Shown in pieces: positions 1,515 through 35,260 of a stretch of DNA of 46,431 nt. Position numbers and translations under genes: made by a program. This DNA comes from a phage. Where the stretch lies: NCBI GenBank assembly GCA_021146965.1, contig GCA_021146965.1_4847.1; one strand, 5' to 3'. The stretch's first letter is position 1, and the number at the start of each line of letters is the position of its first letter. Under the pieces are notes generated by a model. The model had not been told where the DNA came from. It ran no database searches and was given only the letters and a program-made list of their open reading frames with translations.

Positions 1515-1540
1515 AAGCCGCATGAAGCGGCTTTTAATTT
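1515..1540 (+). terminator. rho-independent terminator
   Basis: hairpin AAGCCGC-atga-GCGGCTT followed by T-rich run directly after stop of 1137..1511. Confidence 0.6.
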
Positions 1541-1616
1541 GGTGGACACGGACGAATTTGAACCTTCAATCAGCCGATTATTAGTCGGTTGCTTTAACCA
1601 ATTAAGCTACGCGTCC
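1540..1616 (-). tRNA. tRNA-like gene (77 nt, encoded CCA; anticodon loop CUAAUAA, anticodon reads AAU, identity uncertain)
   Basis: minus-strand sequence GGACGCG-TA-GCTT-AATTGGTTA-AAGC-A-ACCGA-CTAATAA-TCGGC-TGATT-GAAGG-TTCAAAT-TCGTC-CGTGTCC-A-CCA folds as cloverleaf: 7-bp acceptor stem (one G-U), 4-bp D stem with GG in D loop, T8/A9, U33, T-loop TTCAAAT; one mismatch each in anticodon and T stems. Confidence 0.45.
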
Positions 1617-3141: not shown

Positions 3142-3281
3142 ATCACCTTGTCCTCATCAAAAATCACGCCAATAACGCGAAGTAAGTCTTTCGCCATGCG
3201 TTCCGCTTCCTCGTAGTCGTAACCTGCATCAACATACAAATCAGTGTAGAAAATCAGGTCAGCTTTTGTTTGTTCGTTCAT
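3138..3281 (-). CDS. small hypothetical protein (47 aa incl. stop)
   Basis: ORF MNEQTKADLIFYTDLYVDAGYDYEEAERMAKDLLRVIGVIFDEDKVI linking two flanking genes by ATGA overlaps at both ends; below ORF-track size cut-off. Confidence 0.4.
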   Translation of the reverse strand: MNEQTKADLIFYTDLYVDAGYDYEEAERMAKDLLRVIGVIFDEDKVI

Positions 3282-15428: not shown

Positions 15429-16055
15429 TCACTCTCCGTGGTTACAGAATTCTTTATGCATCTTTTCTCTGAATTTCATCACAGACAACCTCGCTCTCTC
15501 AATATCATTGAATAACCCAAGATGGTATCTTTTCCCGTTAACATCACAGTAAGCATGCCACTTTTTAACCTGTTTTTGCCAATACACACCTTTAACTCCT
15601 GATGTGTTATTTTTTGGTTTTTTAGCGTTATACTGGTTCTGCATATTTGTTGCGATTCTTAAGTTGCAAATCCTGTTATCGTCACGCACACCGTTAATGT
15701 GATCAATTTGACCTTCAGGCCAGAAACCATAATAAATCAACCATACCAAGCGATGCGCGTAGTATCTTTTATTATTTATGCTTATCTCTATGTATCCGTT
15801 ATGTTTTTTCCTGCCAGCGACACTACCCTTTCTTACACCTCCACCCGTCTTATTTCTAATGAAAACCCCTGTTTCATGGTTGTAATTTAAGCTATCCAAA
15901 ACAACATAACGTGGTATTCTTTTTCTTCTTCCTATGGTGTTTGACTCTGCACTTCCCTGAGCAAAATCTTGCTTTTGCAGTTCCGATAAACTCATTTCCA
16001 CAAACCTCGCACTTCTTAACGGTGATAGCCATTTCTTACCCTCTATTGTAATCAT
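15429..16055 (-). CDS. HNH homing endonuclease with AP2 DNA-binding domain (paralog 1 of 4)
   Basis: IDHINGVRDDNRICNLR HNH motif plus AP2-like SGVKGVYWQKQVKKWHAYCDVNGKRYHLGLF; paralogous to 25547..26059, 34748..35260, 36012..36542. Confidence 0.8.
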   Translation of the reverse strand: MITIEGKKWLSPLRSARFVEMSLSELQKQDFAQGSAESNTIGRRKRIPRYVVLDSLNYNHETGVFIRNKTGGGVRKGSVAGRKKHNGYIEISINNKRYYAHRLVWLIYYGFWPEGQIDHINGVRDDNRICNLRIATNMQNQYNAKKPKNNTSGVKGVYWQKQVKKWHAYCDVNGKRYHLGLFNDIERARLSVMKFREKMHKEFCNHGE

Positions 16056-23983: not shown

Positions 23984-24046
23984 CTACCCGTTCATATTAA
24001 TTATCAGTGCGCTCTATGTGGCGCACGTTTTAGTGGAGGCACATCA

Positions 24047-24154
24047 ATGAACAACCACCAACGACGCCGATACACCACTGGTGCTAAAATTTTCCTTACT
24101 GTTTATGTGCTTGCACTGGTAGCAGCTATCGCAGGAGTTGTGCATTATGTTTAA
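24047..24154 (+). CDS. small membrane protein (35 aa)
   Basis: GTGGAGG RBS; basic N-terminus followed by one TM helix. Confidence 0.35.
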   Translation: MNNHQRRRYTTGAKIFLTVYVLALVAAIAGVVHYV

Positions 24155-24326
24155 CGATATCAGTGACGCAATGCAAAACATGCGGGAACGCTACTGGGAT
24201 GGCGGTATGATGTGTCATTACATGATGGTGCAGCTCAGCAATCGCATTGAGGTTGTGCCTGACAATGGCGTGCATGACATTAAGTGCATGTGCTCAACGA
24301 GGGCTTTCGCAAATGCAAACCACTAA
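24147..24326 (+). CDS. hypothetical Cys/Met-rich protein
   Basis: ORF in track (24138..24326); ATG at 24147. Confidence 0.35.
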   Translation: MFNDISDAMQNMRERYWDGGMMCHYMMVQLSNRIEVVPDNGVHDIKCMCSTRAFANANH

Positions 24327-24480
24327 ACAGAAAGTCTGGCAACTCGCAAAGCAGCACGAATTAGACGATTTCATCGAGAAGGTTGCAAAGACATTCCCTG
24401 ACGCGCTTGAAGTCGTTCATGTGCAGACGCGAAATGAAAATGCATGGTGCTACACAAAAAATCATACAAATGGTAGATGA
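24313..24480 (+). CDS. hypothetical protein
   Basis: internal ATG of track ORF 24247..24480; overlaps neighbours as in coupled operon. Confidence 0.3.
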   Translation: MQTTKQKVWQLAKQHELDDFIEKVAKTFPDALEVVHVQTRNENAWCYTKNHTNGR

Positions 24481-24907
24481 AATGAAGCTAACAAAAAAAC
24501 AACGCGAAGAGCTACGCATGAAGTTCGGTGGTCGCTGTGCTTATTGTGGGTGTGAGCTACCCGAGAAAGGTTGGCATGCAGACCATGTTGAACCAGTGCT
24601 ACGTAAATCTGAGCAGTGCATGAAGGCAGCGGCGAAAGGGATTTTCAAGCTGAAGGCAACCGGTGAGCTATATCGACCAGAAGCCGAGCGACTGGAAAAC
24701 CTTTACCCTGCGTGCGCCCCCTGCAATCTGATGAAAACTTCCTATTCCCTGGAAATGTTCAGGAAGCAGGTATCTCTTCAGGTTGCTCGTGGGCGCAAAA
24801 GCAGCATGAATTTCCGCACTGCAGAGCGTTTCGGTCTTATCGCCGTGGTGGAGAGACCAGTTGTTTTCTGGTTTGAGAAATACCAGGAAGAGAACGAAAA
24901 AAAATAA
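24470..24907 (+). CDS. HNH endonuclease (classical zinc-finger HNH, packaging-associated type)
   Basis: CAYCGCEL...WHADHVEPV...NLYPACAPCNLMK; located just upstream of terminase genes as for cos-phage HNH proteins; start uncertain (24434/24470). Confidence 0.7.
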   Translation: MVDEMKLTKKQREELRMKFGGRCAYCGCELPEKGWHADHVEPVLRKSEQCMKAAAKGIFKLKATGELYRPEAERLENLYPACAPCNLMKTSYSLEMFRKQVSLQVARGRKSSMNFRTAERFGLIAVVERPVVFWFEKYQEENEKK

Positions 24908-25003
24908 ATGTGTTTATGATGCTCTGTTGGCAAGCGCGATAATGATGGTGTACAATAAACGCACAACCACCATTTGTGAGTTACTCAAAGAACACGAAAA
25001 GAC

Positions 25004-25444
25004 ATGGCGAATCCAAATCCAAAACACAAGTTTTCCTCTACAAATCAACCGCCTCCGCGCGGTAAGAGTTATCGCACAGTGCTGCTTGAGGCGCTTCGTG
25101 CTGCAAATACACCGATGAATGAGATTGAATTCGTCACGTATTACATCAATAGGGCCATGACATGCGAAGACGCTCAGGCAACTGGTATGCTTCGAGAGAT
25201 ATTCCTGCGGCTCAACCCAATTCCTAAGCCTGTAGCTCCTCCTGTGGAGTTTGACTTCCCTGCTGACGGAACTCCGGTTCAGAAAATGGATGCAATCATC
25301 AAGGGTGTCTCCACTGGCGTCGTGCCTGCTGACATCGGCAAGATGATGGCTGACATTATCAAGTCTGGCCTTGATATTCAGGAAATCACCGAACTCGCAG
25401 CGCGACTTGAGCGACTGGAGAAATTGCTGGAACAGCAACAGTAA
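25004..25444 (+). CDS. terS: putative terminase small subunit
   Basis: 146-aa ORF immediately upstream of terminase large subunit region; assigned by position and size. Confidence 0.4.
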   Translation: MANPNPKHKFSSTNQPPPRGKSYRTVLLEALRAANTPMNEIEFVTYYINRAMTCEDAQATGMLREIFLRLNPIPKPVAPPVEFDFPADGTPVQKMDAIIKGVSTGVVPADIGKMMADIIKSGLDIQEITELAARLERLEKLLEQQQ

Positions 25445-25546
25445 CTGATTTATAATAATTAATGCGGCAAAGGGTAGCTCCCTGCCCGGATTGGTCTCCG
25501 GGCTGCCGCATCCATCCAGTGACCGCCTTTAACCGAGGATTCAATA

Positions 25547-26059
25547 ATGCGACCCTTAAAAGAAGAAAAACTCACGCAAGACAGGCTGAAAGAGTTGCTG
25601 CATTATAACCATGATACTGGTATTTTCACATGGGTTCAGCGCGCCTCAAAAAGCGTAAGAGTTGGTAATTCAGCTGGCAGTAAGAATAAGTCAGGCTATA
25701 TAGATATACGCATCGATAAGTCTTTACACAAAGCTCATCGGCTTGCGTGGCTTTACATTTATGGTGTGTGGCCCAATGGGAAAATAGATCACATCAATAA
25801 CGTGAAGACAGATAACAGAATCTGCAACCTGAGAGAAGCAAGCAATAATGAAAACGGATGGAATGCTGGTAAACCATCGACAAATACGTCAGGAGTAAAA
25901 GGTGTGAGTTGGGATGCAGAGAAAAATAAATGGAAGGCGCATTGCAGGGTTTTTGGGAAAAAATATACAGTAGGTAGGTTTTCATCAAAAGAATATGCTG
26001 AGAGAGCCGTGGCGGAGTTCAGAGAGAAACATCACGGGGAGTTTTTTAATCATGGCTAG
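25547..26059 (+). CDS. HNH homing endonuclease with AP2 domain (paralog 2 of 4), inserted between terS and terL
   Basis: IDHINNVKTDNRICNLREA motif plus AP2-like SGVKGVSWDAEKNKWKAHCRVFGKKYTVGRF; 3' end overlaps terL start. Confidence 0.8.
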   Translation: MRPLKEEKLTQDRLKELLHYNHDTGIFTWVQRASKSVRVGNSAGSKNKSGYIDIRIDKSLHKAHRLAWLYIYGVWPNGKIDHINNVKTDNRICNLREASNNENGWNAGKPSTNTSGVKGVSWDAEKNKWKAHCRVFGKKYTVGRFSSKEYAERAVAEFREKHHGEFFNHG

Positions 26060-27476
26060 AAAAAGACTCTCAAGTGTGGCAATCGAAAAACTTGAACAGG
26101 CGGTTGGAAACTCAACTTCAAAGCCTGAGTCTGCTGTATTTGGCATTGTTAACAAACTGCTTGCCGATGGTACGCCTAATGTTATAAAGCGCCTAAAAAT
26201 GACATCAACAGGCGTATCTGAAACAAACGAAGAACCAACAATCCTCATTCCCGAGAGAATGGAATTACTGCTTTATCCTCGTCGTTTCAAAGTGTTCTAT
26301 GGTGGTAGGGGGAGCGGAAAGACGGCTAACGTTGTTTCTTACCTCATCGAAAAGGCAAGATTCCGTAACAGTCGCGTCGGATGCTTTCGTGAGATACAGA
26401 ACTCAATCAAAGAATCAAGCTATGCCGAACTGGTTGATGAGATAAACAGGAAAGGACACACTCAGGAATATCGTTGCGTGGATGGTGAAATAACCCACCA
26501 TTCAACGAGGTCAAAGTTTGTTTTCCGTGGTTTGTGGCGAAATATAACCGCCATTAAGGGTATGGCTGGCCTTACAGATGTATTCTGTGAAGAATCAGAA
26601 AATATCAGCCAGGTTTCATGGGATACGCTAATCCCAACAGTCCGCGCCGCTGGCTCTGAAATTATTATTGTTTTTAACCCAAACAAAGAGACGGACCCGA
26701 CATGGACTAACTTTGTTGCGCCTTATATTGACAAGATGGTTGACGGCATATATCAGGATGATGACATCGTTGTTGTTAATGTTAATTACATCCACAACCC
26801 GTGGTTCACGGAAGAACTTAAGCAGCACATGAACCAGATGAAAGCTGTGGATTATGATCGCTACCTTTGGGTGTATGAAGGCTTATTCAACAAGCGGTCT
26901 GACGAAGCTGTTCTCGGGGGGAAATGGCAAACACTCGACTTTGAACCATCTCCTGAGTGGGGTGGGCCTTACTACGGCATTGACTTTGGTTTTTCTCAGG
27001 ATGCAACAGCAGCAACTGAATCATATGTAGAAGATTTGGGTGATGGACGAAGAAACCTGTATATCTATCGTGACTTTGCAAAGGTTGGCCTTGAGATAAC
27101 TGACACGCCGGAAGCGATGCGCTCAGCATTCCCAAATTCAGAGAAGTACAGATGGTATGGGGATTGCGCAAGACCTGAAACAATAAGCCATATACGACGC
27201 TCTGGATTCGATATTCATCCGTGCGCAAAATGGCCGGGGAGCATTGAGGACGGTATTACGTGGCTGCGTGGGTGTGACAGGATTTACGTGCACTCAAGAT
27301 GCAGGCACGTCATTGAAGAGATGACAATGTACAGCTATAAGGTGGACAAATTAACAGGTAACATACTCCCTGATATAGTTGATAAATACAATCACGCGAT
27401 TGATAGTTTACGCTATGGACTTGGAGATCACATCGTTCAACGCGGTAGCGGGATGCTAATCCGGCGCAGGCGATAA
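26052..27476 (+). CDS. terL: terminase large subunit
   Basis: Walker A FYGGRGSGKT; ~475 aa; start placed at ATG 26052 (track ORF begins 25995 inside HNH gene). Confidence 0.85.
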   Translation: MARKRLSSVAIEKLEQAVGNSTSKPESAVFGIVNKLLADGTPNVIKRLKMTSTGVSETNEEPTILIPERMELLLYPRRFKVFYGGRGSGKTANVVSYLIEKARFRNSRVGCFREIQNSIKESSYAELVDEINRKGHTQEYRCVDGEITHHSTRSKFVFRGLWRNITAIKGMAGLTDVFCEESENISQVSWDTLIPTVRAAGSEIIIVFNPNKETDPTWTNFVAPYIDKMVDGIYQDDDIVVVNVNYIHNPWFTEELKQHMNQMKAVDYDRYLWVYEGLFNKRSDEAVLGGKWQTLDFEPSPEWGGPYYGIDFGFSQDATAATESYVEDLGDGRRNLYIYRDFAKVGLEITDTPEAMRSAFPNSEKYRWYGDCARPETISHIRRSGFDIHPCAKWPGSIEDGITWLRGCDRIYVHSRCRHVIEEMTMYSYKVDKLTGNILPDIVDKYNHAIDSLRYGLGDHIVQRGSGMLIRRRR

Positions 27477-34471: not shown

Positions 34472-34773
34472 TATTTAATCTCTCCGTTCAGTTCATTAAC
34501 AATTAACGTTGCATAGCCAGCAATATCTTTCCAGCTGTCATCATAAGTCGGGTCGCCATTCAGAATGCGCCCAATCTTGTGCTGAATCATGTCGAGCGCC
34601 TCGCGTTGACTTGGTGTGAGATTGCGCCAGCCATCTACCTTGCGCATCACATCTTTCAACTCCTGCATAATTTCAGCGCCGTCTTTGAATTTACCGTATC
34701 GACTACCGCGTTCGGTGATGAGTCGCTCTGTTGCGTCAGTATGGCGCTTATCGCCCGTGATTTGTGAACTCAT
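34471..34773 (-). CDS. hypothetical protein
   Basis: 100-aa ORF, ATG start. Confidence 0.45.
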   Translation of the reverse strand: MSSQITGDKRHTDATERLITERGSRYGKFKDGAEIMQELKDVMRKVDGWRNLTPSQREALDMIQHKIGRILNGDPTYDDSWKDIAGYATLIVNELNGEIK

Positions 34774-35260
34774 TGTGATGCATTCTCCTGAATTCTTTTA
34801 TTTTTGCTTCTGCTTCTCTTATGTCGGAAAAGTAACCAACTGTGAATCTTTTGCCATTTACTCCAACTCTTGCATGCCACTTGTTGTGCGATGAACTCCA
34901 GTTAACCCCCTTGATACCGCTAGTGTTGTTTTTGTTCATTGCTTTGTTGTGGCTATTCTCAAATTTGCTGGCCTCCCTTAAATTGCACGCCCTGTTGTCA
35001 TTGCGAATGCCATTAATGTGGTCAATCATTTCACTTGCTGGCGCGCCATGAATGCATATCCATGCCAATCTGTGAGCAAGAAAAGCCCTACCGCAAAGAA
35101 TTATTTGCACATATCCATCTGGCTTTAAGTAGCCAGCCACACTCCCTTTTTCTGCAATCCTATTCCTTGTCTTTAGCCATTTAAATTCCCCAGTTAGTGG
35201 ATTGTAGTAAAGGTAACTCAATATAAACTCCCTACTCGGCTCATCTCTCCTATGCCTCAT
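34748..35260 (-). CDS. HNH homing endonuclease with AP2 domain (paralog 3 of 4)
   Basis: IDHINGIRNDNRACNLREA plus AP2-like SGIKGVNWSSSHNKWHARVGVNGKRFTVGYF. Confidence 0.8.
   Translation of the reverse strand: MRHRRDEPSREFILSYLYYNPLTGEFKWLKTRNRIAEKGSVAGYLKPDGYVQIILCGRAFLAHRLAWICIHGAPASEMIDHINGIRNDNRACNLREASKFENSHNKAMNKNNTSGIKGVNWSSSHNKWHARVGVNGKRFTVGYFSDIREAEAKIKEFRRMHHNEFTNHGR

Follow-up and report, generated by a model that had tools for sequence, protein, structure and literature searches.

A probable homing endonuclease cassette with a structured leader at the terS/terL junction of a Skatevirus-like phage

The 46,431-nucleotide stretch of phage DNA analyzed here (hereafter, the window) is the genome of a Skatevirus-like siphovirus. 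We find that positions 25438-26078 of the window very probably form a free-standing, intron-less homing endonuclease gene (HEG) cassette that occupies the terS/terL junction of this headful-packaging phage and has no role in packaging. As we reconstruct it, the cassette would consist, in order, of a -10-like box, a structured 5' leader, a Shine-Dalgarno sequence, a gene for an I-HmuI-like HNH nuclease with an AP2-type domain, and a rewritten version of terL codons 1-9. The HEG belongs to an already known kind, the HNH-AP2 homing endonucleases at hot spots near terminase genes; of the whole cassette, only the leader may be new. The records nearest to the window are those of E. coli phages ZCEC08, HC6 and 6947 and Salmonella phage ST1UNAM (~98-100% identity in the HEG region); farther relatives include the BASEL phages Bas77-79, KFS-SE2, Skate and Klebsiella phages. 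The window also carries a tRNA-Ile with the unusual anticodon AAT (1540-1616, minus strand; ARAGORN). The cassette and its surroundings contain the following features:

25004-25444, plus strand: putative terS, 146 aa, named from position only
25438-26078, plus strand: whole HEG cassette, ~640 bp in place of ~38 nt (Seszw_1) or ~190 nt (Bas78, C1); bounds from alignment A1 and extracted junctions
25451-25456, plus strand: -10-like TATAAT box, read from the sequence, 5 nt upstream of leader helix P1
25462-25511, plus strand: Y-shaped leader (minimum free energy fold) with helices P1 (25462-69/25504-11), P2 (25471-74/25480-83, loop UAGCU) and P3 (25484-90/25497-503)
25535-25539, plus strand: HEG Shine-Dalgarno sequence GAGGA, read from the sequence
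25547-26059, plus strand: homing endonuclease gene (HNH_3 and AP2-like), 170 aa, ATG start
26036-26041, plus strand: GGGGAG, likely terL Shine-Dalgarno sequence, within the HEG 3' end and ten nt before the terL ATG
26052-26078, plus strand: terL codons 1-9, presumed target-site immunity tract; codons 3-9 are recoded in HEG-containing alleles (ATGGCTAGAAAAAGACTCTCAAGTGTG)
26052-27476, plus strand: terL, 474 aa, PBSX/Sf6-gp2-type with an RNaseH-like nuclease domain; ATG at 26052-26054

The endonuclease gene and its neighbors

A first-pass annotation of this DNA had placed a homing endonuclease gene exactly between terS and terL and overlapping the terL start. Its coordinates and the overlap were confirmed, as the stop codon of the HEG (TAG, 26057-26059) lies within the terL start ATGGCTAG, giving an overlap of 8 nt. 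The protein matches Pfam HNH_3 with 51.1 bits (cut-off 24.8) and phrog_99 ('HNH endonuclease', 1e-67), and has a C-terminal AP2 match of 22.1 bits, which is under the Pfam cut-off of 33.3; searches of PDB sequences and NCBIfam returned no match. An AlphaFold (AF2) model built on the four HNH-AP2 paralogues of the window (pLDDT 77) contains two domains. The best Foldseek PDB match of this model is I-HmuI (1u3e, probability 1.0), which covers the N-terminal ~96 residues, and there are weaker matches to the AP2 domains 3igm and 7et5, with probabilities of 0.8-1.0 but E values of 0.1-0.5. The C-terminal part is modeled as three strands (120-123, 128-135 and 138-145) followed by a helix (148-164). 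The HNH motif residues D81-H82, N90, N94 and N103 are invariant across the four paralogues. The HEG is more AT-rich than its surroundings (GC 0.42, compared to 0.465 for the genome and 0.45-0.50 for neighboring genes), and GenBank records of relatives already label it as an HNH or homing endonuclease.

The same annotation noted a separate, classical HNH gene upstream of terS and regarded two different HNH enzymes flanking terS as unusual. The second gene is indeed present at 24470-24907, with matches to PF01844 (26 bits, cut-off 21.4) and phrog_2118 (2e-58). The arrangement is not exceptional, however, because five HNH genes are found in the 46 kb window (four HNH-AP2 paralogues, located by tblastn, and the classical HNH gene); relatives have further HNH genes in front of the portal gene and behind the head-morphogenesis gene, and the clustering of HEGs near terminase genes is documented as hot spots (PMC10448857). 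The additional HNH loci of the window are:

24453-24924, plus strand: second, independent HEG insertion, a clean ~472 bp that holds the classical HNH gene
15429-15995, minus strand: HNH-AP2 paralogue, 54% amino acid identity, overlapping the start of a downstream nuclease-like gene
34748-35260, minus strand: HNH-AP2 paralogue, 44% amino acid identity
36003-36542, plus strand: HNH-AP2 paralogue, 36% amino acid identity

In Seszw_1, Sf11 and KFS-SE2, the site of the second insertion is empty, with ...GCATGGTGCTA joined directly to TGCTGGCAAGCG... (alignment A4). Only 9 records hold this second insert, and homologues that are 73-84% identical occur in unrelated phages. Between this insert and terS, at ~24973/24974, the window is without an ~84-bp segment that is present in Seszw_1, Bas78, Sf11 and KFS-SE2 (L001 ~1700-1790, L017 ~560-650). 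The segment lies between a promoter-like TTGGCA-18-TACAAT (24927-24956) and the terS ATG and contains a terminator-like hairpin (AACCCGCCTTGTGCGGGTTCTTTTT); a promoter, ~70 nt and a terminator ahead of the relatives' packaging operon look like an antitermination leader or a small RNA.

The gene upstream of the cassette is called terS by position because no library recognizes its product: Pfam, NCBIfam and the PDB gave no match, and its PHROG, phrog_9747, is of unknown function. Its C-terminus is EQQQ* in the window, with its own stop at 25442-25444, compared to EQQNGS* overlapping terL in Seszw_1. Downstream, the terL product matches Terminase_3 and Terminase_3C (Pfam) and PBSX-family TerL (NCBIfam); its homologues of known structure include Sf6 gp2 (4idh, 2e-35) and the nuclease domain of SPP1 G2P (2wbn, 4.5e-8).

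As the HEG ends over the terL start, the first-pass annotation proposed that terL depends on the HEG transcript. We found no plus-strand terminator-like site between 25445 and 26060, and the sole promoter-like match in this interval is a weak GTGACC-18-AATAAT (25519-25548) upstream of the HEG ATG. Expression of terL through the HEG transcript is therefore plausible, and the proposed dependence of terL on that transcript appears reasonable. In HEG-less phages, the stop codon of the upstream gene overlaps the terL start. Since insertion destroys this native coupling (terS-terL or small-ORF-terL), the cassette itself appears to restore it: the last HEG codons, with the GGGGAG ribosome-binding site and a TAG that overlaps the terL ATG, would re-create translational coupling. 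The last ~30-40 nt of the HEG are kept even between different HEGs at this site, as in phage Sf11, where gp34 is a different HNH gene that has only its last 31 nt, all identical, in common with the window HEG. Two of the paralogues likewise run into the beginning of the gene that follows, by 4 nt (15429-15432) and 26 nt (34748-34773), so HNH-AP2 cassettes may restore translational coupling as a rule. Both of these overlapping paralogues carry a C-terminal ...H(H/K)xEFxNHG motif.

Alleles of the terS/terL junction

Comparison with relatives revealed several alleles of this junction. In Salmonella phage Seszw_1, a terS-like gene overlaps terL by 11 nt with nothing in between, while Bas78, C1 and many other natural isolates have an ORF for a 52-aa membrane-like protein there. 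This hydrophobic ORF (L017 1106-1264 in Bas78; L018 ~5975-6135 in C1, where it is unannotated) is coupled to both neighbors by overlapping start and stop codons and has no family match. It is absent in Seszw_1 and replaced by the HEG in the window, so it appears dispensable. The cassette is absent from Seszw_1, Bas77-80, C1, BS5 and others, and an HNH-AP2 gene with the leader is found at the terS/terL site in ~20 distinct phages of Salmonella, Escherichia and Klebsiella. HEG-less junctions occur in 135 related records, a per-record count inflated by the ~70 of these that are laboratory-derived seszw genomes (PMC9825161). Diverged HEG variants occupy the same site in INT55 and in an IMG/VR contig (L012). 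The first-pass annotation had named conserved presence of the gene in all related phages, with packaging dependent on it, as evidence for a core packaging factor; the absence of the gene from Seszw_1, Bas78 and C1 instead bears out the annotation's identification of a homing endonuclease-type gene inserted precisely between terS and terL.

The cassette and its flanks differ in their similarity to other phages. When the window was compared with four HEG-containing phages (KFS-SE2, KpnS_VR6602, VSt472 and ZX4), identity was 92-96% in the leader, 97-98% in the HEG body and 100% over terL codons 1-9 (the first 27 nt), compared to 68-83% in terS and 82-83% in terL nt 28-500. Conversely, the window terS is 97-100% identical to that of the HEG-less phage Bas78, and Bas77-79, which do not contain the cassette, have the same terS allele as the window. 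A cassette of 92-100% identity in flanks of 68-83% identity, next to a terS like that of HEG-less Bas78, indicates that the cassette moved between genetic backgrounds. Within the HEG, the first ~85 nt (25547-25631) are only ~71% identical to KFS-SE2-type copies, compared to 97-98% for the remainder, so the window copy is a recombinant. This recombinant 5' end is common to the window lineage (ZCEC08, HC6 and 6947).

The terL start also differs systematically with the presence of the HEG. TerL begins MARKRLSSV/I in 5/5 HEG-containing alleles and MARKRLSAL in 3/3 HEG-less alleles examined, the latter with the codons CGT AAA CGM CTM TCC GCR CTG; in the HEG-containing alleles, AGA at codon 3 creates the TAG stop of the HEG. 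The 3' end of terS likewise differs systematically between the 5 HEG-containing and 3 HEG-less alleles. Recoding of this kind would be expected with a target that extends across the start of terL and an immune carrier, cleavage presumably being blocked by the changed codons. We looked for a long co-conversion tract in terL and did not find one; in KFS-SE2-type phages the shared tract stops after ~27 nt.

From these observations, we infer active homing by the following route. When a relative with a HEG-less junction allele infects the same cell, the enzyme would nick or cut that allele, probably near ...ATGGCTCGTAAACGMCTMTCCGCRCTGGCAATC, a site proposed from allele differences only. Nicking by I-HmuI-type enzymes often occurs at a distance from the insertion point. 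Recombinational repair from the HEG-containing genome would then copy the cassette into the cut allele, and the recoded terL 5' end and altered terS 3' end would render the carrier immune. An undamaged reading frame that keeps its HNH residues need not mean that the element still homes today.

A structured RNA ahead of the endonuclease gene

The 102-nt stretch before the HEG contains the TATAAT box, a three-way junction and the GAGGA Shine-Dalgarno sequence. A promoter scan found no full sigma-70 promoter at the 25451-25456 box. A TAnAAT or extended -10 box is present at the same place in other type-A leader copies, 3-8 nt before the outer helix in copies of the enterobacterial type; the box may thus act as a promoter, and this spacing would place the structure at the very 5' end of the transcript.

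The leader has an invariant hairpin, AGGG-UNGCU-CCCU (AGGG-U[A/C]GCU-CCCU), preceded by A-rich nucleotides, and helices P1 and P3 that covary. Among 11 close copies (alignment A3), compensatory changes are found in two P1 pairs. Among 20 diverse copies (alignment A6), 14 of 19 pairs show compensatory changes, compared to 8.5 in shuffles; 70 cells are changed on both sides, compared to 19 in shuffles; and standard pairs fill 90.8% of cells, compared to 30-44% when the partners are slid, all in an alignment that is model-guided and fitted to the structure and so favors it. RNAalifold independently recovered the same three helices, with 10 of 14 pairs covarying.

The same leader, 83-100% identical, is found before different genes at different places. 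In ST46, Segz_1 and ECO95 it precedes a further HNH-AP2 gene, located behind the head-morphogenesis gene, and in Klebsiella phage VLCpiS13e a T5orf172-type endonuclease gene that is flanked by tail genes and encoded on the opposite strand. When IMG/VR was scanned for the hairpin core AAAGGGTNGCTCCCTG, 53 loci were returned. At ~30 of these an outer helix encloses the hairpin, usually followed by a second hairpin of differing but pairing sequence; the remainder are probably chance matches, as by our estimate a 15-base pattern is expected tens of times by chance in a collection of that size. Copies include those at L004 (2510-2560), L005 (2497-2547), L106, L109, L110, L113, L116, L118, L124, L127, L137, L141 and L143. 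Genes 20-45 nt downstream of leader copies, which occur in diverse phages, encode HNH_3, Endonuclease_7, LEM-3-type GIY-YIG, T5orf172/MUG113 and KilA-N proteins; one copy precedes an integrase gene and another lies directly before a terminator. Metagenome and genome collections scanned with the strict core yielded just six matches; L020, the one inspected, proved to be a chance occurrence in a contig of high GC content. The leader does not follow the protein family: with models R1 and R2 it is found at only 2-4 of the best 80 HNH-AP2 loci and before none of the other three HNH-AP2 genes of the window, and folds upstream of the other window HEGs did not exceed shuffled controls. Its presence at so few HNH-AP2 loci indicates a separate module and not a trait of the protein family.

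Rfam 15 gave no match to the leader at E<=1 (window 24000-26400 and 8 further motif loci), and no occurrence of its core sequence turned up in the searchable literature; the leader may be one of the unnamed RNA candidates of PMC10690425. We rejected several identities for it. An ORF of 48 aa (25462-25608) spans the leader and is in frame with the HEG in ST46 and VLCpiS13e, but no start codon is kept from copy to copy, a stop interrupts it in KFS-SE2, and changes at variable positions compensate each other in the helix instead of being synonymous. The lack of a CUGANGA box in the junction and the G that follows the AGGG/CCCU helix in all A6 copies argue against a hammerhead, the Rfam result against another known ribozyme or an intron remnant, and ARAGORN, which returned only the unrelated tRNA-Ile mentioned above, against a tRNA-like gene. 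A pac or cos site is unsupported, as HEG-less relatives do not have the leader. Several GenBank records open in or just after the leader (Skate ~25494, CECAV_048 ~25500, BUCT541 ~25516 and HC6 25524), which is probably the annotators' choice. The Skate genome was closed by PCR, and no termini were reported (PMC6606912).

Genes behind leader copies thus encode nucleases of at least four unrelated families and one KilA-N protein, and sometimes the leader may stand alone as a small RNA. We tentatively propose, at a little less than even confidence, that it is an undescribed, widespread cis-acting RNA module at the 5' end of selfish phage genes, portable and exchanged between HEG cassettes, that controls expression or stability via a factor shared by many hosts or phages. 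Our best guess at its role, offered with low confidence, is a 5'-terminal stability or translation-control element or an attenuator, recognized by a widely shared factor.

Other leaders were seen in the course of this analysis. A second type keeps the arms of the outer helix (AUGCGGC...GCCGCAU, with covariation to AUGCAGC...GCUGCAU) but has another interior and a shared CCCUGAUGAGGAAUC stretch before the ATG; it is found before other HNH-AP2 genes elsewhere, at L019 2364-2463 (Sf11), L046 1424-1527 (Seszw_1), L047 (SB28) and L001 4435-4537. A third Y-shaped variant precedes the pre-portal HNH gene of Seszw_1. The IMG/VR contig that holds the L141 leader copy also contains a DUF2815 RNA (Rfam RF03084, 65 bits, 3198-3258), which is unrelated to the leader.

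Alternative roles and relation to known systems

The first-pass annotation asked which of the two HNH enzymes might be the packaging-associated nuclease, and our comparisons indicate that neither is. The candidate model would be HK97 gp74, with the AP2-HNH protein or the upstream HNH protein serving as a dedicated cofactor that stimulates terminase cleavage and belongs to the core of the packaging module. As in gp74-type systems, the HNH genes adjoin terminase genes, the upstream HNH matches PF01844, the type of gp74-like proteins, and homing and packaging roles need not exclude each other (PMC10448857). However, gp74-type genes are conserved in HK97-like cos modules, whereas the two window HNH genes are insertions that a headful PBSX/Sf6-type module can do without. 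Neither gene is present in viable relatives whose terL is ~85-92% identical: both are absent from Seszw_1, which was kept through hundreds of laboratory transfers (PMC9825161), and the AP2-HNH gene is also absent from Bas77-79. Neither gene is conserved throughout its packaging-module lineage, and unrelated genes occupy the same terS/terL site. Nor does the partner look like an HK97-type cos terminase with a neighboring cos site, as TerL is of the Terminase_3/PBSX/Sf6 gp2 type and itself has a nuclease domain like those of Sf6 and SPP1. Among relatives, headful packaging is reported for STGO-35-1 (PMC8954984) and full permutation for KlebP_265 (PMC11769527). Because both genes are absent from viable relatives, TerL is of the headful type with its own nuclease and relatives are reported as headful or permuted, we conclude that neither HNH gene is required for packaging, and we consider a gp74-like cofactor very unlikely.

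It is also improbable, though less so, that the gene is a former HEG which no longer homes and is kept because it supplies the ribosome-binding site and start of terL, perhaps with a promoter, its protein being inactive or a DNA-binding regulator. The terL start context lies wholly inside the cassette, the 3' end of the gene is kept even between different HEGs, the window copy has a mosaic 5' end, and AP2 domains are DNA binders that have been co-opted repeatedly (PMC10448857). The invariance of the HNH motif in the four paralogues argues against such retention, as do the 97-98% identity across divergent backgrounds, which indicates recent spread, and the turnover of several distinct HEG variants at the same site. 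Most improbable of all is that a self-splicing intron or intein, located within a packaging gene, carries the HEG. In other phages, introns with HEGs next to them do split terL (PMC10448857), and the structured leader could have been what is left of such an intron, but terS has its own stop, the TerL N-terminus is complete and homologous, Rfam gave no intron or ribozyme match at E<=1, and the leader also precedes intergenic HEGs, including those on the opposite strand to neighboring genes.

A free-standing mobile cassette, which we favor, agrees with what is known of the HNH-AP2 HEGs of phages, cyanobacteria and protists (Magnani et al. 2004, cited in PMC10448857) and of the related 'IPA-HNH' genes of ICP1. 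Like HNH-AP2 HEGs, the window gene has an N-terminal HNH domain, joined here to a candidate C-terminal AP2-type domain with a sub-threshold match, is free-standing and present in multiple copies per genome, and is sporadic in relatives beside essential genes that include terminase. Unlike the IPA-HNH genes of ICP1, its protein matches canonical HNH_3 directly, and unlike the HNH-AP2 family at large, of which only a few per cent of members have one, it carries a structured leader. With I-HmuI of phage SPO1, the protein shares an HNH_3-type beta-beta-alpha-metal nuclease of a phage homing endonuclease; I-HmuI, a strand-specific nickase, differs in being located in a group I intron and in its other C-terminal DNA-binding modules.

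The free-standing seg and mob HEGs of phage T4 are known for intron-less homing and marker exclusion, with the seg proteins belonging to GIY-YIG, a different family from that of the window HEG. They share with the window cassette intergenic insertion between conserved genes and, presumably, a target in the HEG-less allele of a related phage and immunity of the carrier through target differences; their expression is checked by upstream RNA hairpins and phage promoters. In comparison, the window leader is a three-way junction conserved in sequence across nuclease families and distant phages and not a gene-specific hairpin that hides a ribosome-binding site. A structured RNA directly 5' of an HEG ORF is also seen in the GIR1 lariat-capping ribozyme before I-DirI, which shapes the 5' end of its mRNA (PMC2219692). 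GIR1 is a ~190-nt, group I-derived ribozyme in a eukaryotic twin-ribozyme intron, whereas the window leader is ~50 nt long, has no similarity to GIR1 and gives no indication of catalysis.

In itself, the HEG matters little, as it adds another documented case of selfish nuclease genes crowding phage terminase genes. It does caution annotators that an HNH gene next to terminase is not automatically a packaging factor. The junction is also a natural experiment, with at least three alleles (empty, small ORF and several HEGs) at one site in near-identical, culturable phages of E. coli and Salmonella. With these alleles, and with Bas77-79 carrying the terS allele of the window, homing, immunity by recoding and the restoration of coupling are directly testable. 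If the leader is functional, it would represent a new regulatory RNA class associated with mobile nuclease genes, and a useful marker of their cassettes.
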